Part shown: one piece after another, positions 6,019 through 63,425 of the stretch
Layout of the letters: the number at the start of each line of letters is the position of its first letter
Position numbering within the stretch: the first letter of the stretch is position 1
From: Nannocystis bainbridge
GTDB lineage: Bacteria; Myxococcota_A; Polyangia; Nannocystales; Nannocystaceae
Reading direction: 5' to 3'
NCBI RefSeq assembly: GCF_028368995.1
Contig: NZ_JAQNDL010000001.1
Span: 3,328,001-3,392,000 of the forward strand
DNA length: 64,000 nucleotides
Notes under the pieces: model-generated
Seen by the model: only the letters and a program-made list of their open reading frames with translations
Database searches by the model: none
Told to the model about the DNA's origin: nothing
Program-made: the position numbers and the translations under genes

Positions 6019-7269
6019 ATGGCGCGGGTCCACCTTTGGCGCAGGATATCCCGGGCCGGCGTCGACTCCGGCTTGGACGAACATCTGCGGCGAAAGGTCG
6101 AGCTGACGAACAAGCTCGGCTTCACTGCGGGCGTCCTGGTGTTCACGGGAAATTCGCTGTTCTGGGGGGTCCTCGGCGCCGACGTTCGCATGGTCCTCGT
6201 CTTGTTCGCAGCGGCCCTCGCCTATGCCTCGATCCCCTTGATCAACCGCGCGCGTCGGTACGACCTCTCGCGCGGCGTGCTGACCGTTCTTCCGCCGATC
6301 TTCATCGTCGCGGCGGCTGGCATCATCAGCGACACTCCGCTCCTCAGCTTCAAGTTCGCGCTGCTGTCGGTTATCGCCGGGCCGCTCCTCGTGTTCGGCA
6401 TCGAAGAGCCGCGGAAAATGATCGCCGGCATCGTGTGGGTCGCCGTCTGTCTCGTCGGGATGGACACGATGATGCCGATCATCCCGAAGCTTTCGGGATT
6501 AGACGCAAACCCGCTCGAGGGCTCGCTCTCCGTCACGATCAACGCGGCGGTGAGTTGCCTGATTTTTGTCTCCTCGTTCGTCTATTTTCAGCGCCTCAAC
6601 CTCGCCGCAGAGAGGAAGCTGGAGGCCGAGAAGGTCAAGTCGGAGCGCTTGCTCCTCAACGTCTTGCCGCGAGAGATCGCCGATACGCTCAAAGAGTCCG
6701 AGCGAACCATCGCGGAACACCTCGAGAGCGCCAGCATTCTGTTCGCGGACCTCGTCGGGTTCACACCACTAGCGGCGAAGCTCTCGCCCGGCGCCGTCGT
6801 CGACCTCTTGAACGAGCTGTTCTCCGAGTTCGATCGGATGGCCGAGCGGCTCGGCGTGGAAAAGATCAAGACCATCGGCGACTGCTACATGGCGGCCGCC
6901 GGGGTCCCCAGGCCCACCGATGACCATGCCCACGCACTGACGCGGCTAGCGCTGGCTATGCAGGCGTTCATGACGGAGTACCGGTTCGAGGGACGGCGCC
7001 TGGCGCTGCGCATAGGGATCAACTCCGGGCCGGTGACTGCTGGCGTGATCGGCCGCAAGAAGTTCGTCTACGACCTGTGGGGCCACACGGTGAATGTCGC
7101 TAGCCGAATGGAATCGCAGGGGAGCGGCGGAGTCGTTCAGATCACCGACTCGACTCATGCGCTGATCGAGGACGATTTCGCGTGCGTGTCCGGCGGTGTC
7201 GTCAATGTCAAGGGCACTGGCGAAATGCACGTGTGGCACGTCCTCGGAGCCCGCGACGGCCGAGCTTGA
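6019..7269 (+). CDS. Membrane class III adenylate/guanylate cyclase (complete catalytic set)
   Basis: About 6 TM helices, then FADLVGFT, KIKTIGDCYM, RIGINSGPV, YDLWGHTVNVASRME and VKGTG. Confidence 0.93.
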   Translation: MARVHLWRRISRAGVDSGLDEHLRRKVELTNKLGFTAGVLVFTGNSLFWGVLGADVRMVLVLFAAALAYASIPLINRARRYDLSRGVLTVLPPIFIVAAAGIISDTPLLSFKFALLSVIAGPLLVFGIEEPRKMIAGIVWVAVCLVGMDTMMPIIPKLSGLDANPLEGSLSVTINAAVSCLIFVSSFVYFQRLNLAAERKLEAEKVKSERLLLNVLPREIADTLKESERTIAEHLESASILFADLVGFTPLAAKLSPGAVVDLLNELFSEFDRMAERLGVEKIKTIGDCYMAAAGVPRPTDDHAHALTRLALAMQAFMTEYRFEGRRLALRIGINSGPVTAGVIGRKKFVYDLWGHTVNVASRMESQGSGGVVQITDSTHALIEDDFACVSGGVVNVKGTGEMHVWHVLGARDGRA

Positions 7270-9730: not shown

Positions 9731-10600
9731 TCAGCCGAGCGGCTCGAAGAGCTCGGCCACGGGCGAGTCGTTCGGGGCGGGGTCGTAGTCGCCGATGCCG
9801 TCGAAGCAAGCGTGAACTTCGGGAGATGAGCCACCACGCGCGCGGGCCATCCGGGCACACCCGGCGAGCAGCGCCAGCACCTCTTCGACCCATGGATCCG
9901 CGAGGTCTTCTATGCACGCCGGAAAAGCTGCGAACCCGGCGGGCACATCGACCTCGGACCTGCGATCGTCCTGCAGCTTCGCCAGCGCGACCGCGAAGTG
10001 TAGCGACACCGCGACGATCGCCGGCGCGCTGCCGTGTCTGGCGACCGCGAGCGTGCGCTCGTGGGCCCGCTCGAGACGGCTCGCAGATGCCCGCCAGTAA
10101 CGGCGGAGCAACCGCTCCGACCGCGAGCGCCGGCGGACCTGCTCGCGGTACTCCGCCTTCCAGCGCGCAACACCGGAGCTGCGCTTCCACGCCTCGACGA
10201 AGAAATCGAGGTCGGCCGGGAACTCGAGCGCGATGAGCCGCTCGATGGCCTCGTCCGCGGCGATCATCGCCGCCTGCCCGAGCGCCGAGCGCAGCGCACC
10301 CCGGCGCTTCGGAGCGACCTGGGCCACCCGGCCTCCGGCGCGCCCGGTTCGGCCGCAGCGAACGCGGCGAACATCCCTGCAGCGTCGGCGAAGCGAGCGC
10401 TCGCGACCGCGGCGAGAGCGTCACGCAGCGCGGCAACCTGGTGCGCCGTCGGCGGGACGTCGTCATCCTCGACCGCCTCGTCTGCATCGGCCGCCTCGAA
10501 GCCCGCCGCGAGCTCGCGCGAAGCGCTCGGATACGGCGTCGCTAAAAATTGCCCGCGCTCGAACAGGAGCGCCGTCATCACCACCAGGAGCACGTACACG
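9731..10600 (-). pseudogene. Helical hypothetical protein, possibly frameshifted (ORFs 10264-10683 and 9731-10327)
   Basis: Two overlapping ORFs in different frames whose protein-like parts meet near 10300-10330. Confidence 0.35.
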
Positions 10601-10757
10601 CGGCCGATGAACGAGCGATGAACGCTGCGGATCTCAGCATTCGCGCATGGACTCGACGACCACGAGACCCGTCGAAATAACATGTCCCTTGGGACACGTT
10701 ATGATCCTTCTCGAGGACTCCCGACCTTCGCGGCCTTTCGATTGTCCAGCAGACCTC

Positions 10758-11954
10758 TCAGCCCACCGTCGCCGGGCTGCGGTACCCCTCCGGCTCCCCG
10801 CGCACCACCGCAGCTCGCTCCTCCGCCGTCAGCTCCGCCCACGTCGCCGCGTCCACCACGACTTGCTCCGGCGTCGCTCGCTCTTCCATTGCGAACGCCG
10901 CCTCGATCGCCGCCCCCCACATGTCGTAGGCCAGCTTGTTCGTCCCCACCACCCCAGCGATCACCTCGCCGGTCCCGACCCCGATGCGCACCCGGATTGC
11001 GCGCGCCTGGCAGGCCTCTGCGCGCTCGACTGCCGCGCGCATGCGCAGCGCCAGGTCGACCGCCGCGCGGGCTGACGGCTCGCGGCCTGACAGCCCGACC
11101 GCCGCCACATACGCATCGCCGACCGTCTTCACCTTGTCCGCGCCACGCTCCTTGCAGACCGCATCGAACGCGCTGAACGTCGCGTTGAGCACACGGACGA
11201 TGTCCTCCGCGGCTGCCTCTTCGGCCAGGCGCGTGAACCCGGCGATGTCGCACACCACGATGCTCACCTGCGGGTGACGTCGCCCCACCCCTTCGCCGCC
11301 CTCGCGCAGCGTCGCCACGAACTCGGCCGGCAGCACCGTCCCCAGCAGCGCGTCCGTGCGGCCGCGCAGCGCTCGCAGCTCGTCGCGCGTCCGCGCCGTC
11401 ACCCGCTGCGCGTAGTACGTCGCCACCGCCATCGCCGCCGCCACCAGCGACATGTTGATCTGGAAGTTGCTGCGCACGTCCTCGGGCGCCGCCCCCATCG
11501 CCGGCACCACCGCGAACGCGAAGCAGAAGCCGAGGAACGCCGCCGCGTTGAGACCTGCCACTGCCAGCGCCGTCCGCCGCCGCTCGCTCGGGAACAGCAT
11601 GAACGTCAGCACGATCACCGGCATGTACCAGTACTGCAGCCCGTAGATCGGCCCGAACAGCGACACCGCGCCGGCCGTCGAGAGCAGCGTGTACAGCGCG
11701 AAGATCACCGCCGCTGCTGCGTGACGGCCCTTCGTCGACAGCCACAGCGAGAACATCGGCGGCCCGATCCCCGCCGACAGCCCGTACACCACTCCTGTCA
11801 GCGAGCCCGCCGCGTAGATCGAGCTCAGCAGCACCGTGATCGCCGTGAAGCCGATCGCCAGCAGGCACAGCCCGTGGAGGAACACCACGTGCTGGCGCTC
11901 GAGCGGCGCCGCGTGCGGGGCCAGGCCCTGGCGCAGCAGTCGCCGGAGGCTCAC
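10758..11954 (-). CDS. Membrane class III cyclase, C1-like subunit
   Basis: GTG at 11954 overlaps the upstream stop; TM region; CDIAGFT and VKTVGDAY present; YDMWGAAIEAAFAME lacks the N/R pair; no KGKG. Confidence 0.88.
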   Translation of the reverse strand: MSLRRLLRQGLAPHAAPLERQHVVFLHGLCLLAIGFTAITVLLSSIYAAGSLTGVVYGLSAGIGPPMFSLWLSTKGRHAAAAVIFALYTLLSTAGAVSLFGPIYGLQYWYMPVIVLTFMLFPSERRRTALAVAGLNAAAFLGFCFAFAVVPAMGAAPEDVRSNFQINMSLVAAAMAVATYYAQRVTARTRDELRALRGRTDALLGTVLPAEFVATLREGGEGVGRRHPQVSIVVCDIAGFTRLAEEAAAEDIVRVLNATFSAFDAVCKERGADKVKTVGDAYVAAVGLSGREPSARAAVDLALRMRAAVERAEACQARAIRVRIGVGTGEVIAGVVGTNKLAYDMWGAAIEAAFAMEERATPEQVVVDAATWAELTAEERAAVVRGEPEGYRSPATVG

Positions 11955-13189
11955 GGCGCGCGCCCTGCCTTGCGTGCTCCGCGGACGAAGTACGTCTTCA
12001 TCGCCCCCTTGCCCTTGATCTCCACCCCTTCGCGCCCGCTGCACTCGAAGCGATGGTTGATCTTCGCGAACGTCAGCGGCGACACGTGGACCTCGCCTGC
12101 CAGCCCGTGCATCTCCATCCGCTGGGCCGTGTTGACCGTATCGCCCCACAGGTCGTACGTCGGTCGCACCTGCCCGATCACCCCTGCGACCACCGGCCCC
12201 GAGTTGACCCCGATGCGCACCGCGATCCCCGGCGTCGCCGCGAACTCGTCGCGCAGCGCCAGCCCCAGCGCCACCAGCACCTCCGCGTGGTCCGGGCGGT
12301 ACACCGGCAGCCCGGCCGCCGCGACGAAGCTGGTCCCCGTCGTCTTGATCTTCTCCGCCCCGAACTCGGCGCAGCGGCGGTCGATCGCGGCGAACACCGC
12401 GTGGAGCCGGGCCAGGTACGCCTCTGGCGTCTGGCCCTCGGCCGGGCGGTCGAGCCCGATCACCCGGCAGAACAGCACCGACGCGTCGCCCTGGCGCTCC
12501 GCGATCTCCTGCTCGCCCGCTTGCAGGCGCAGCCCGATCTCCTCCGGGAACACGCTGCGGAGCAGCCGCTCCGACTTCGCCCGCTCGTGCTCGAGGTCTG
12601 CCGCGGCCATCGCGTTGAACGAGCGCGAGCCGTAGCCGACCAGCAGCGTGATCGCCACCAGCAGCCCCTGATGCAGGTACTGGTTGGGCCCGTACTGGGC
12701 CACGCGCCGGGCCAGGTCGCCGTCGAGGTCCCAACCGTAGACCAGCACTGCCAGGCACGTCGAAGCTGCCAGCGCCGTGGCCAGCGCCGCTGTCGGCTCG
12801 CGGCTGGGGAACAGCAGGAACGGCAGCGCCGCCACCAGGATCAGCATGAAGAAGTTGCCGTAGTCGAGCCCGAGGGTCCACGAGCCGACCACGATCGAAG
12901 TCATCACCGCGACGTGGAACACCAGCGCCGCGTCGCGCGGGCGGCCGCGGGCGTGCAGCGCGAACACGGCTCCCAGGCCGCCGACCGTGAGCCCGAGGTG
13001 GGCCAGGAGCGCCGGGTCGAGCGGCCGGCCGGTGCCCATGTGACCCGCGCAGGCCATCACGATCCCGAGCAGCGCCAGCCCGTTGAGCAGGCGGATCCGC
13101 TGACCATCCTCTCGGGACATGTCCTCGCGGACACCCGCCGCGACGGCCCGCGACAGCGCCGCTCGCACCCGCAGGCCCGCGTTCGTCAC
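11951..13189 (-). CDS. Membrane class III cyclase, C2-like subunit
   Basis: TM region; FCRVIGL and IKTTGTSF lack both metal Asp; YDLWGDTVNTAQRME and IKGKG intact. Confidence 0.9.
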   Translation of the reverse strand: MTNAGLRVRAALSRAVAAGVREDMSREDGQRIRLLNGLALLGIVMACAGHMGTGRPLDPALLAHLGLTVGGLGAVFALHARGRPRDAALVFHVAVMTSIVVGSWTLGLDYGNFFMLILVAALPFLLFPSREPTAALATALAASTCLAVLVYGWDLDGDLARRVAQYGPNQYLHQGLLVAITLLVGYGSRSFNAMAAADLEHERAKSERLLRSVFPEEIGLRLQAGEQEIAERQGDASVLFCRVIGLDRPAEGQTPEAYLARLHAVFAAIDRRCAEFGAEKIKTTGTSFVAAAGLPVYRPDHAEVLVALGLALRDEFAATPGIAVRIGVNSGPVVAGVIGQVRPTYDLWGDTVNTAQRMEMHGLAGEVHVSPLTFAKINHRFECSGREGVEIKGKGAMKTYFVRGARKAGRAP

Positions 13190-13343
13190 TTCCCCGGCAC
13201 CTTACCGGAAACCCCCGCCAGCGTCCCGCCGGGCCCGACCGGCGGCTGGCGCGGAAACGAGCCGCCCGCAGCCGTCACATGCCCGAAAGGACATGTCGCA
13301 AAAGCCATACGGACACGCGTTCGCCGACGCGCGTCGTCACGGC

Positions 13344-14939
13344 TCAGTCGGCGAGCTTCAGCGTCACCTCGACCTGCGCACCGTCCGGGGCCTGCACACG
13401 CAGCTCGCCGCGGTCCCGGTCGAGCGTCCAGCATGCGCCCTCCGGGCCGGTCCGCGTCGCCAGTTCGATGTCGAGCGACGCGCCGTCGAACCGGCGCGGC
13501 GGCAGGGCGATCTCGCTGACCCCGCCGTCCGCGGTCCAGCTCGCCGTGACCGTCGTCTGGTCCCACGCGAACGCGCTGTCCGAGCCGGCCACCGCGCGCA
13601 GGTACGGGCGGACGAACACGTCGAGCGAGTCGCGCTCGCTGCCGTCGGCCGCGAGCACCGACAGGTCCTCCGCGTTCCAGTCGACCTCGTTCTGCGAGCA
13701 CTCCCACAGCGTGGCCGACAGCCGGCGCGCGTCCATGCGGTCGAGCGCGCGGGCCAACCACTCCTCCGCGCCCGGCGCCCCGTGCCCGTAGCCGAACTCG
13801 CCGATCAGCACGCCCAGCCCCTCCGCTGCCGCGAAGTCGGCGACGTCGTCGAGGTACGGCTCCGGCATCATCCCGATCGAGGGCAGCCCCTTCACCAGCC
13901 CCGCGTCGTACATGTGCGCGGCGTACACGAGCCCCGAGCCCTCGGGCCGCACGTGCTCGACCGGCTGGAACCCGACCGCGTCGGTGCCCGGGTTGTCGAA
14001 CAGGATCAGCAGCTCGTCGCCGGCCAGCGCCCGCAGCTGGGCCACCGCCTCGGTGTGGAACGGATTGAGGACCTCGTGCTTCCACGCCGGCACGTCGTTC
14101 GCGGTGCCCGAGCCCGGCTCGTTGACGATCTCGAGCCCGACCACCCCGGGGTGGTCGCCGATGCGCGCGATCATCTGGCCCCACATCGCGAAGAACTTGG
14201 CGTGCAGCTCGTCCTCGTCGGCCCAGAAGCGGTCGAACGCGGACCGCACGTCGCCGTCGAGCACGTACTTGAGGCCCCAGTCGGCGTCCGGGCACTCGTG
14301 CGGCGCTGGCATCGGGTCTTGCTGCAACGTCCACGGCGGGAAGCCGTCGCCGCAGAACGTCGACGTGTACACGTCCTGATGGAAATCGACCACGACCCGC
14401 AGCCCGTGGGCCCACGCCGCGTCGACCATCGCCGCGTAGCGGTCGAGGTAGCGCGCGTCGTACTCGCCCGGCGCTGGCTCGAGCGCCTCCCACGAGAACA
14501 GCAGCCGCACCACGTTGATGCCCCAGCTCGGCAGCCGGGCGAAGAACTGCTCCGCCTCGGCGGCGAACCCCGCCGGATCGATCTCCGCCGCGATCGGGAA
14601 CGGCACGAACGGCGCCCACTTCGAGCGCCCGCCGGTGTTGACCCCGCGCAGCAGCACATCGCGCCCGTGCTCGTCGAGCATCCGCCCGCTCGGATCGAGG
14701 CTCACGCGCCCGCTGGTCAACAGCACAGGTTCGATCGGGCTCGTGCACTCGCCCGGGAGCAGCGGCGCCCCCGTGGTCGTCGGCGCCGCCGTCGAGGTCC
14801 CGGTCGGCTCGGTCGGCGCCGTCGCCTCCGTCCCCGCGGTCCCCGTCGTCGTCGTCGTCGCCTCGCTCGCGCCGGTGCTCGGAGACGGATCTCCGCCGCA
14901 GCCGATCGCCGCCGTCAACAGTACAAGCGCTCTGCGCAT
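13344..14939 (-). CDS. GH5 glycoside hydrolase lipoprotein (endoglycoceramidase-like)
   Basis: Lipobox AAIGC; LRGVN, WEALEP, VVVDFHQDVY, GDGFPPW, NEP, IGEFG and RPY motifs. Confidence 0.88.
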   Translation of the reverse strand: MRRALVLLTAAIGCGGDPSPSTGASEATTTTTGTAGTEATAPTEPTGTSTAAPTTTGAPLLPGECTSPIEPVLLTSGRVSLDPSGRMLDEHGRDVLLRGVNTGGRSKWAPFVPFPIAAEIDPAGFAAEAEQFFARLPSWGINVVRLLFSWEALEPAPGEYDARYLDRYAAMVDAAWAHGLRVVVDFHQDVYTSTFCGDGFPPWTLQQDPMPAPHECPDADWGLKYVLDGDVRSAFDRFWADEDELHAKFFAMWGQMIARIGDHPGVVGLEIVNEPGSGTANDVPAWKHEVLNPFHTEAVAQLRALAGDELLILFDNPGTDAVGFQPVEHVRPEGSGLVYAAHMYDAGLVKGLPSIGMMPEPYLDDVADFAAAEGLGVLIGEFGYGHGAPGAEEWLARALDRMDARRLSATLWECSQNEVDWNAEDLSVLAADGSERDSLDVFVRPYLRAVAGSDSAFAWDQTTVTASWTADGGVSEIALPPRRFDGASLDIELATRTGPEGACWTLDRDRGELRVQAPDGAQVEVTLKLAD

Positions 14940-38296: not shown

Positions 38297-38333
38297 ACGG
38301 ACATGTCCTCCGGGACATGTTCGAAAGATCCCG

Positions 38334-61334: not shown

Positions 61335-63425
61335 ATGGCCACGCCGATCGACCGCGCGAGCCTGCTCGCCGACCTCTGCAACGACCGCGAGCTCGCGCGA
61401 CCGCGGCGCCTGATTCACGGCGCAGTCCTGCCCGGCGCTCACCTCGATCTCGAGGGCCTCGCGCTCGCCGACCTCCTCCCCGCGCTCGACCTCCCCGCCC
61501 TGCGCGGCCTGTGGCTCGGCGGCTGCGACCTCGGCCCCGACGCCGCCCGGACGCTCGCCGCCTTGCTCGCCCGTCACCCGAACCTCGGGCACCTCTCCCT
61601 GCGCAAGACCCCACTCGGCCCCCGCTCGCTCTCCGACCTCCTGCCCGCGCTCGCCGCCCACCCCGCGCTGCGCAGCCTCGACCTCGGCCACACGGGCCTC
61701 ATGCCTCACGAGACATGTCGCATCGGACATGCCCTCAAGGACATCGACGACCTCCGCCTCGACGGCCCCATCCCCCTCGACGGCCCCGCGATCGCCGAGT
61801 GGGCCGGGCTGCTCGCGCGAGGTCGCTGGCACCGCCTCGCCCTCCCCGCCGCCCTCGAAGCGCGCCCGCTGCTCGCCGCCCTCGAAACCAACTCCCGCCT
61901 CTGCGTCCTCGACCTCGAGGGCCTCGCCCCCGACCTGCGCGCCGACCTCCTCGCCCGCCTCGCCCGCAACGCCAACCGCAACCCCACGCGCCGGCCCGTC
62001 CCCGACCTCGCCCGCCTGCGCCGCGCCCTCCCGCCCCTCGCGCCCGCCTCCGACCTCCCGCCCCCGCTCACCGAGCCCGACCTCGACATCGCCCTCCGCC
62101 TCCTCTCGCACCTGTCCCTTCGGCCATCTCTCCTCCGTGGCGACCACCCCCGGCTCGTCGCCCTGCGTCAGGCTATTTACAACTTTCACCGCGACGATCG
62201 CCGCCACGCCCGCAGCGAGCGGCGCCGCGATCGTCAGCGGCGCGACGCCCAGGAGGCCGAAGATCGCCAGCGCGCCGAAGCGGCCGCCATTCGCAAGCGC
62301 CACCTCGGCGTCGCCGCCACCCCCGAGCCCCCGCCCGAGCCCACCGTCCACGAGTTGCACGCCCCGCGCCCCTGCTACGTGTGCAAGCAGCCCTACACCC
62401 GCCTGCATTTCTTCTACGACCGCCTGTGCCCCGCCTGCGCCGCCCGCAGCTACGCCCGCCGCGGTGATGCTGTCGACCTGCGCGGACGGATCGCCCTCGT
62501 CACTGGCGGCCGCATCAAGATCGGTCACCAGGTCGCCCTCCGTCTCCTGCGCTGGGGCGCGCGCGTCCTCGTCACCTCGCGCTTCGCCCGCGACACCGCC
62601 CGTCGCTTCGCCGACCAGCCCGACTTCGAAGCCTTCCGCGATCGCCTCGAGATCATCGCCCTCGATCTGCGGCAGATCCCCCGCGTCGAGGCCTTCGCCG
62701 CCAGGCTCGACGCCGAGCTGCCCGCCCTCGACATCCTCGTCAACAACGCCGCCCAGACCATCCACCGCCCGCCCGAGTTCTACGCCGCCCTGCTCGCCGA
62801 CGAGGCCCGCCCCGAGGCCCTGCCGCCGGCCCTGCAGTCCTTGCTCGCCGAACCACATGTCCCCGGGGACATCTCACTCCCCGAACACCCGCTGTTCCCC
62901 CAGCGCAGCGACGACGGCTTCGGCCAGCCGCTCGACCTGCGCGAGCGCAACAGCTGGCGCCTCCGCCTCGACGAGGTCGGCACCCTCGAGATGGTCGAGG
63001 TCCAGCTGATCAACGCCGTCGCCCCCTTCGTCCTCAACGCCCGCCTGCGGCACACCATGGCCCGCGCCGACCGGGCCGCCTTCGTCGTCAACGTCAGCGC
63101 CCCCGAGGGCCGGTTCGACCGCGACTGGAAGGCCCCCTTCCACCCGCACACCAACATGGCCAAGGCCGCCCTCAACATGATGACGCGCACCGCCGCCGAC
63201 GACTACGCGACTGACCGCATCTTCATGACCAGCGTCGACACCGGCTGGGCCTCCAACGAAAACCCCGCGCCGATCGCCGACGCCATGCGCGACCGCGGCT
63301 TCATGCCCCCCCTCGACCTCGTCGACGCCGCCGCCCGCGTCTGCGACCCAATCGTCCGCGGCCTCCGCGACGGCGAATTCCTGCGCGGCGTATTTTTAAA
63401 GGATTTCGAGCCGATCAGCTGGTAA
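61335..63425 (+). CDS. LRR + Zn-finger + SDR oxidoreductase fusion
   Basis: RI-like LRRs (LRGLWLGGCDLG, LRSLDLGHT); CYVC...CPAC; TGGRIKIG, LVNNAAQT, HTNMAKAALNMMT and VDTGW. Confidence 0.85.
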   Translation: MATPIDRASLLADLCNDRELARPRRLIHGAVLPGAHLDLEGLALADLLPALDLPALRGLWLGGCDLGPDAARTLAALLARHPNLGHLSLRKTPLGPRSLSDLLPALAAHPALRSLDLGHTGLMPHETCRIGHALKDIDDLRLDGPIPLDGPAIAEWAGLLARGRWHRLALPAALEARPLLAALETNSRLCVLDLEGLAPDLRADLLARLARNANRNPTRRPVPDLARLRRALPPLAPASDLPPPLTEPDLDIALRLLSHLSLRPSLLRGDHPRLVALRQAIYNFHRDDRRHARSERRRDRQRRDAQEAEDRQRAEAAAIRKRHLGVAATPEPPPEPTVHELHAPRPCYVCKQPYTRLHFFYDRLCPACAARSYARRGDAVDLRGRIALVTGGRIKIGHQVALRLLRWGARVLVTSRFARDTARRFADQPDFEAFRDRLEIIALDLRQIPRVEAFAARLDAELPALDILVNNAAQTIHRPPEFYAALLADEARPEALPPALQSLLAEPHVPGDISLPEHPLFPQRSDDGFGQPLDLRERNSWRLRLDEVGTLEMVEVQLINAVAPFVLNARLRHTMARADRAAFVVNVSAPEGRFDRDWKAPFHPHTNMAKAALNMMTRTAADDYATDRIFMTSVDTGWASNENPAPIADAMRDRGFMPPLDLVDAAARVCDPIVRGLRDGEFLRGVFLKDFEPISW

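Follow-up and report, generated by a model that had tools for sequence, protein, structure and literature searches.

What is made by two overlapping cyclase genes when neither encodes a complete set of catalytic residues? The question is raised by a pair of genes, here called B and A, in a 64,000-nucleotide stretch of the Nannocystis bainbridge genome (the window: C1:3328001-3392000 of an 11.05-Mb genome in 5 contigs; 72% G+C in the window). An initial annotation, made from the letters alone, had described two membrane-anchored class III cyclase genes overlapping by the 4 nucleotides GTGA, and this is borne out, with the addition that both lie on the minus strand (Table 1). Against the Pfam family PF00211, which has a curated cut-off of 21.9 bits, A scores 129.5 bits (E 1.4e-37; residues 226-386, profile positions 5-166 of 183) and B 141.5 bits (E 3e-41; residues 230-403, profile positions 3-182 of 183), so that both belong to the class III nucleotidyl cyclases. 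They are two separate open reading frames (ORFs), each with its own start and stop, and not a single polypeptide of the TM1-C1-TM2-C2 type (TM, transmembrane). It is probable, if well short of certain, that their products join as an obligate heterodimer, a membrane-bound adenylyl cyclase of class IIIa in which one site is active and the other degenerate.

Division of the catalytic residues

Residues were assigned by aligning A and B to the 19 PF00211 cyclase domains held by their own genome and to solved structures, and the codons were checked. A retains the two metal-binding aspartates, D236 (CDIAGFT, 11247-11249) and D280 (VGDAY, 11115-11117), together with K276, R323 (the RIG arginine) and D344. 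At the positions of the transition-state asparagine and arginine it carries E351 (10902-10904) and A355 (10890-10892), and it ends without KGKG, the C-terminal strands that bear this motif being absent. In B both metal aspartates are missing, with R242 (FCRVIGL, 12464-12466) and T286 (TGTSF, 12332-12334) in their place, and K282, R325, D346, N353 (12131-12133), R357 (TVNTAQR, 12119-12121) and K392 (of KGKG) are retained. All of these motifs had been read in the same way in the initial annotation, and every one is present at the level of the codons. The paralogue that it had called intact (6019-7269) has all these catalytic residues, with KGTG replacing KGKG. The alignment to Rv1625c and the mammalian cyclases that it had proposed as a check (Rv1625c/Cya, 7yzi, and AC9, AC8 and AC5) confirms the assignments in both chains.

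Neither chain, then, has both metal aspartates along with the asparagine, the arginine and the KGKG lysine, as a self-sufficient homodimer would. What is found is a division of the C1/C2 type: the metal aspartates come from A and are absent from B, and the specificity lysine and aspartate, the asparagine and arginine, and the KGKG lysine come from B, with asparagine and arginine absent from A. Lysine plus aspartate at the specificity positions is the adenylyl cyclase pattern of class III cyclases. To judge by these residues, A and B probably work only as a pair.

How would such a pair work? In each subunit six membrane helices would be joined through a helical linker to a single cyclase domain, and the two cyclase domains would meet in the head-to-tail manner that all class III cyclases share. 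At the complete site, A would supply D236 and D280 for metal binding as well as R323, and B would supply K282 and D346 to specify adenine, N353 and R357 to stabilize the transition state, and K392. The mirror site, formed by R242 and T286 of B with K276, D344, E351 and A355 of A, would bind no catalytic metal and would be a non-catalytic, possibly regulatory pocket. A degenerate second site had been foreseen in the initial annotation, and this holds in so far as B has lost both aspartates and A the asparagine and arginine. However, because A keeps K276 and D344, the site appears less degenerate than had been implied, and one may infer that it could still bind a purine ligand. The stop codon of B overlaps the start codon of A by 4 nucleotides, which suggests that translation of the two subunits is coupled. 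Single subunits would be inactive, for which there is a precedent in Rv1625c: in the passage of PMC4821796 that deals with its D300A and R376A mutants (attributed there to Guo et al. 2001), each is inactive and the two together form an active dimer, which makes them a laboratory counterpart of the natural split. We infer that A and B would pair physically, that each would be inactive alone, that the product would be cyclic AMP (cAMP), and that the second site and the two different membrane domains may have a regulatory role. The forskolin-like pocket and the AND-gate between two membrane sensors that the initial annotation had suggested are possible forms of such a role.

Conservation, descent and selection

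Does the split persist in other genomes? Five other Nannocystis genomes hold adjoining orthologues of the two genes (84-88% identity for A, 87-92% for B), and a sixth, more distant draft has them adjacent as well, with B at 56% identity and 174 residues of A before the contig stops. B precedes A with a GTGA overlap in all seven Nannocystis loci that hold B (L001-L007), and a GH5 cellulase gene lies upstream, syntenic in 5/5. The frames are intact in five of the six other B loci and in every A locus not cut by a contig end. Full-length database relatives of B reach down to 37% identity (P0004-P0017) and relatives of A to 50% (P0125-P0141). Three metagenome pairs of B and A homologues come from contigs of equal size (11942, 3717 and 3882), which points to shared contigs. 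A phylum-wide search with P0017 in 401 genomes found no relative closer than the window; the genome of P0017 itself surfaced later, in a family scan with PF00211.

That scan covered 41 genomes and listed 150 of its 318 matches, from which six other tandem pairs were picked, so that it is no complete census. Among the matches listed, at least three sister-genus pairs (L141, L142 and L143) repeat both the B-then-A order and the residue split. Their upstream genes have lost the first aspartate (A or N instead) and lost or kept the second, with asparagine, arginine and lysine kept; their downstream genes keep both aspartates, have E or H for the asparagine and L or A for the arginine, and are shortened at the C-terminus. 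The junctions are ATGA, GTGA and GTGA. The other three tandem pairs fetched from the matches listed have all residues intact in both genes, and tandem arrangement alone therefore does not bring degeneracy. At two loci, L144 (G451:C51) and L145 (G444:C1), tandem canonical cyclases carry all catalytic residues in both genes, with an ATGA overlap at L144, and tandems of this type may show what the ancestral state of the split pair looked like.

Within each of the two clades the pattern is fixed. In the B clade the first aspartate is absent from 17/17 members (replaced by R, T, A, S or N) and the second from 14 of the 17 (replaced by T, A, G, M or H), and the six residues from the specificity lysine to the KGKG lysine (K, R, D, N, R and K) are retained in all 17. 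In the A clade both aspartates, the RIG arginine and the substrate aspartate are retained in 21/21. None of the 21 has the asparagine (E in 11, D in 8, H in 2) or the arginine (A in 20, L in 1), and the position of the KGKG lysine is empty in every one. The residue at the asparagine position is acidic in 19 of them. Variable substitutes at the lost positions, set against invariance at the retained ones, read as the signature of relaxed positions. The comparison cyclases do not look like this: the full residue set is present in 23 of 24 canonical comparison domains, and both aspartates, the asparagine and the arginine are kept in 81/81 domains of a background sample. The sample consists of 80 unrelated, generic metagenome cyclase loci without close B relatives, at most 48% identical among the matches listed, from a scan with the B-family alignment. 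The initial annotation had asked whether relatives would show complementary or random loss, and random decay is not seen; on the alignments, the A/B split is conserved.

How widespread are such half-enzymes? Among 1.84 billion cluster representatives, whatever their length, a profile search brought up just two close A-type clusters and no fused protein close to A and B. The top matches were P0131 (727 bits) and P0167 (415 bits), followed by an 894-residue protein (291 bits). About 10 of 56 single-domain matches are C1-like in their residue pattern, so that half-enzymes do occur beyond the genus, yet are uncommon. The 894-residue protein, P0168, is a fusion of two membrane-plus-cyclase halves; its first domain has all residues, and its second keeps the aspartates and has Val and Gly at the asparagine and arginine positions.

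When 67 cyclase domains are placed in a quick maximum-likelihood tree, the 21 rows of A form one clade and the 17 rows of B another, with Shimodaira-Hasegawa-like approximate likelihood-ratio test (SH-aLRT) supports of 95 and 99. The groups are defined by the trait itself, and a tree stripped of the trait columns and of everything past the end of A is therefore fairer; in it the two clades persist with moderate support (81 and 91). Branching inside the A and B clades is parallel, which fits a pair that arose once and was later duplicated as a complete module. A second quick maximum-likelihood tree, of 124 rows, includes 24 two-domain cyclases from the profile search, many of them with the residue pattern typical of animal enzymes. 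Here four branches leave an unresolved fork separately: A (support 95, 26 rows), B (support 98, 17 rows), the C1-type domains and the C2-type domains. A thus falls outside the C1-type clade, and B outside the C2-type clade. The likeness to C1 and C2 is thus an analogy, as far as the tree shows. Of the eukaryote-style C1/C2 arrangement claimed in the initial annotation, the residue split is the same, but kinship with these clades finds no support.

Ratios of nonsynonymous to synonymous substitution (dN/dS; Nei-Gojobori, medians over six species) are 0.19 for A and 0.17 for B in the linker and catalytic half, and 0.52 and 0.38 in the membrane half. In the catalytic part of a canonical cyclase from the same six genomes the value is 0.026. 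A and B are under purifying selection, much looser than that on the canonical cyclase. (The control had to be another cyclase than the paralogue at 6019-7269, which is present in just two of the five other Nannocystis genomes.) The paralogue is less conserved in the genus than A and B; one of its two counterparts is in two pieces, and its neighbourhood differs.

Structural models and competing explanations

AlphaFold2 models of the monomers have a mean predicted local distance difference test score (pLDDT) of 76.7 for B and 71.5 for A. Predicted helices span residues 26-52, 59-80, 84-106, 110-126, 132-153 and 159/169-213 in B, and 17-46, 52-74, 78-100, 107-120, 123-148 and 157-207 in A, a count that rests on pLDDT values of 50-80 in the membrane part. 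In both models the sixth helix continues as a long cytosolic helix that leads into the cyclase fold, and B has two closing strands (381-391 and 395-405) that A lacks. The best solved relatives of A and B are Rv1625c and mammalian AC9, AC5 and AC8. A matches Cya/Rv1625c (7yzi) best (E 1.5e-35); B matches it at 6.6e-40 and AC9 as well. The 7yzi alignment spans residues 101-370 of A and 78-408 of B and thus enters the membrane part. As modelled, then, both chains have the six membrane helices, helical linker and single cyclase domain of the Rv1625c type of class IIIa.

A complex of B 192-412 with A 186-398 was modelled, as the initial annotation had proposed. The interaction prediction score from aligned errors (ipSAE) is 0.67, against 0.00 for the best of three controls. 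Among 80 solved complexes 58 attained the mark that this model passed, as did 2 among 110 mismatched pairs. No fewer than 92% of the contacts are shared between runs, the pLDDT of the partner is 79 or higher, and the modelled interface consists of the linker helices and the usual head-to-tail cyclase dimer surfaces. The model passes its controls, but it cannot tell a heterodimer from homodimers. Since solved cyclase dimers exist, and the pass may reflect memory of them, it indicates only likeness to such dimers and is not proof that A binds B.

Is an obligate heterodimer, then, the best account of the locus? Several observations weigh against it, among them this limit of the complex model and three members of the B clade that retain the second aspartate. 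Because A retains K276, D344 and R323, residual homodimer activity of A is possible. Together with its two metal aspartates this would fit a B that is a dead pseudo-cyclase and that, as partner of A (itself a weak homodimer) or of others among the 19 cyclase domains, has a regulatory or dominant-negative effect. Contig C3 carries one of these 19 PF00211 matches, a C1-like cyclase that is unpaired and would be able to use B, and the constraint on the catalytic parts of A and B, about 7 times looser than on the canonical cyclase (0.17-0.19 against 0.026), points in the same direction. A dead regulator, however, would have no need of N353, R357, K282, D346 and K392, which are invariant in 17/17, and the asparagine, arginine and KGKG residues are exactly what A lacks in 21/21. 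Genes that overlap and were duplicated together as a pair speak for dedicated partners, one B to one A. As for an A homodimer, Rv1625c R376A is described as inactive where PMC4821796 mentions it. On balance, a pseudo-cyclase B is unlikely. Alternatively, the heterodimer may form and no longer make cAMP, serving as a nucleotide-binding receptor or scaffold or making a different product. The relaxed selection would again agree with this, as would the truncated C-terminus of A (its model, of moderate confidence, is missing the last two strands of the fold, a further point against an active pair) and the acidic residue fixed at its asparagine position in 19/21, which suggests a new function of that site. 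On the other hand, one full catalytic set is kept across both proteins in every lineage examined, which is hard to explain without catalysis, and the specificity lysine and aspartate are those of an adenylyl cyclase. Loss of cAMP synthesis is accordingly improbable.

Some of the record could even be taken for plain decay of functionless duplicates, complementary by coincidence. The pair was not found in four of ten other genomes of the genus (all four fragmented drafts, 82-88% complete), and in the B orthologue of N. punicea (L006, G001) the reading frame is lost near codon 114 through a 1-nucleotide deletion. The deletion lies at about 1504-1507 of L006 (about 12850 in the window), in a TTCTT context; the rest of the gene is 92% identical, with no further stop. 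It is either a sequencing error or a sign of recent inactivation or dispensability. Decay is nevertheless strongly disfavoured and very improbable: 17/17 and 21/21 sequences show the pattern, even where identity is as low as 40-50%, and three paralogous pairs repeat it; dN/dS is far under 1; frames are intact in all but one of the six other B loci and in all uncut A loci; and, among the matches listed, none of the 81 background domains is degenerate. The heterodimeric adenylyl cyclase is thus the reading retained here. Two incomplete, complementary subunits are what the initial annotation had proposed, and all computational tests that were run (conservation, linkage, co-divergence, selection and the complex model) agree with them.

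The locus, other cyclases and known systems

The features of the locus are collected in Table 1. Long ORFs that cross both genes in other frames or on the opposite strand (10699-11868, 11274-12635, 12053-13519 and others) are the usual open frames of DNA with 72% G+C and were rejected as genes. One overlapping open frame of 707 residues prolongs A upstream into B, and it was not counted as a gene either. A promoter scan gave no match on the coding strand upstream of B with the sigma-70 consensus, which is possibly unfit for myxobacterial promoters; its sole sigma-70-like match is on the plus strand, at 10677-10705. The hairpin beyond A may, on weak evidence, mark the end of the transcription unit. 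The window also holds 16 sites of a palindrome, ACATGYCC-N4-GGRCATGT (at most 2 mismatches; 0.03 expected). Two copies, at 10680-10699 and 13277-13296, flank the B-A unit, and others lie elsewhere (e.g., 38301-38320 and 62855-62874). The flanks of the five named Nannocystis loci gave no exact match to it. The palindrome could be a hairpin element resembling repetitive extragenic palindromic (REP) sequences, a terminator or an operator.

Table 1. Features of the B-A locus, in window coordinates
Feature	Position	Strand	Description
Gene B	13189..11951	minus	Upstream gene, C2-like subunit; GTG start, 412 residues (ORF and translation)
Gene A	11954..10758	minus	Downstream gene, C1-like subunit; GTG start, 398 residues (ORF and translation)
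B/A overlap, GTGA	11951..11954	minus	TCAC on the plus strand; the GTG start of A shares 4 nucleotides with the TGA stop of B
B membrane domain	12620..13114	minus	About residues 26-190; six predicted helices (AlphaFold2, hydropathy, 7yzi alignment)
B cyclase domain	11981..12502	minus	Residues 230-403
A membrane domain	11400..11906	minus	About residues 17-185; six predicted helices (AlphaFold2, 7yzi alignment)
A cyclase domain	10797..11279	minus	Residues 226-386; final two strands absent
Terminator-like hairpin and T-run	10550..10567	minus	About 190 nucleotides beyond the A stop; 2 sites against 0.9 expected

Other cyclases of the genome bear on the same theme. The unpaired gene on contig C3 (G000:C3:781303-782553, or L148:1304-2554; orthologue L147 in G005) encodes 417 residues, with both metal aspartates, Ser and His at the asparagine and arginine positions, and no KGKG lysine. 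No second cyclase gene was found near it, and its product, too, may recruit a C2-like subunit. On the same contig, L149:477-4961 encodes a large protein in which two cyclase domains precede a STAND-type AAA_16 ATPase and TPR repeats. In the first domain the aspartates are kept and Glu stands at the asparagine position; the second has lost the aspartates and keeps the asparagine and arginine. This protein is a fused pseudo-heterodimer in the same genome as A and B. Soluble adenylyl cyclase (sAC) has the architecture CHD-CHD-STAND ATPase-TPR, where CHD is a cyclase homology domain. Tandem-domain cyclases of this sAC-like kind resemble the B-A pair in joining a C1-like and a C2-like domain within one bacterial protein, and they differ from it in being single soluble polypeptides with a residue pattern of the class IIIb type and no membrane sensor. 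A cyclase domain on another contig (G000:C5:213744-214280) has Glu and Cys, not Lys and Asp, at the specificity positions, which is the guanylate cyclase pattern.

Which known enzymes does the pair resemble? The membrane adenylyl cyclases of mammals (AC9, 7pd4 and 6r3q; AC5, 8sl3; AC8, 8buz; VC1/IIC2, 1azs) are among the best sequence matches of A and B in the PDB. They too have one domain with the metal aspartates and another with the substrate lysine and aspartate, the asparagine, the arginine and the KGKG lysine, hence one active and one degenerate pseudo-symmetric site, and each half has its own, differing six-helix domain and linker. The mammalian enzyme, however, is one chain, whereas the Nannocystis pair is two genes and two polypeptides with the C2-like one first. 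A also keeps the specificity lysine and aspartate (K276 and D344) that are absent from mammalian C1 and lacks the C-terminal strands. Common descent with C1 and C2 has no support in the tree, and regulation by G proteins or forskolin is not implied. Soluble guanylate cyclase (sGC) alpha/beta (6jt0, 3uvj), also matched by sequence, is an obligate heterodimer of separate gene products with one catalytic and one pseudo-symmetric site; it is soluble, regulated by heme and NO, GTP-specific and eukaryotic, whereas A and B are membrane-anchored with lysine and aspartate at the specificity positions. Rv1625c/Cya (7yzi) shares with each Nannocystis chain the six TM helices, the helical domain and the single class IIIa cyclase domain, but it is a symmetric homodimer with two active sites in which asymmetry was engineered; in A and B the asymmetry is natural, conserved and spread over several positions.

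In the chytrid NeoR/RGC system, as described in the relevant part of PMC10622942, duplication has given rise to neighbouring genes for membrane-sensor cyclase subunits, which have unlike sensors and function solely as heterodimers. These enzymes are eukaryotic, carry rhodopsin sensors and make cGMP, and that part of the paper ascribes the choice between hetero- and homodimer to the cyclase domain and describes no complementary residue loss. Among bacteria, the passages of PMC4821796 and PMC9552081 on the subject state that class III cyclases act as homodimers, as the initial annotation had said of most of them, and that the complementary C1/C2 arrangement is eukaryotic and followed gene duplication and fusion; one of the two calls bacterial homodimerization a fundamental difference from the eukaryotic enzymes. 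As a bacterial precedent, Rhodospirillum centenum gcyB/gcyC was considered and rejected, since in the pertinent lines of PMC4681086 they are called non-catalytic subunits and annotated as hypothetical proteins. The full-text literature searched held no natural bacterial two-gene cyclase with a C1/C2-type split, though the main class III reviews lay outside its coverage and an earlier mention is possible. The principle is known from mammalian adenylyl cyclases, sGC and chytrid NeoR/RGC; new within the searched literature is the bacterial two-gene form with its putatively translationally coupled junction.

What would such an enzyme mean? A bolder account is possible, though doubtful. A split adenylyl cyclase may have arisen within the Nannocystaceae, separately from that of eukaryotes, as a dedicated heterodimer of two unlike six-helix receptors, with the second site turned into an allosteric purine-nucleotide pocket (K276 and D344 of A plus the acidic residue at the asparagine position) and the module duplicated into at least three partner-specific pairs. 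If true, the independent split would amount to a bacterial family of asymmetric receptor cyclases and would offer a simple two-gene model for the workings of mammalian TM1/TM2 and of a forskolin-type site. For annotation there is a warning in any case, in that cyclase genes that look dead singly may be halves of an active enzyme. If the heterodimer is real, it would provide a small and genetically tractable system in which to study an asymmetric membrane cyclase whose two membrane domains differ, and a natural test of whether a non-catalytic site and paired membrane domains carry regulatory signals. A natural bacterial pair of this kind, if active, would mean that catalytic division of labour can arise without fusion, and outside the eukaryotes.

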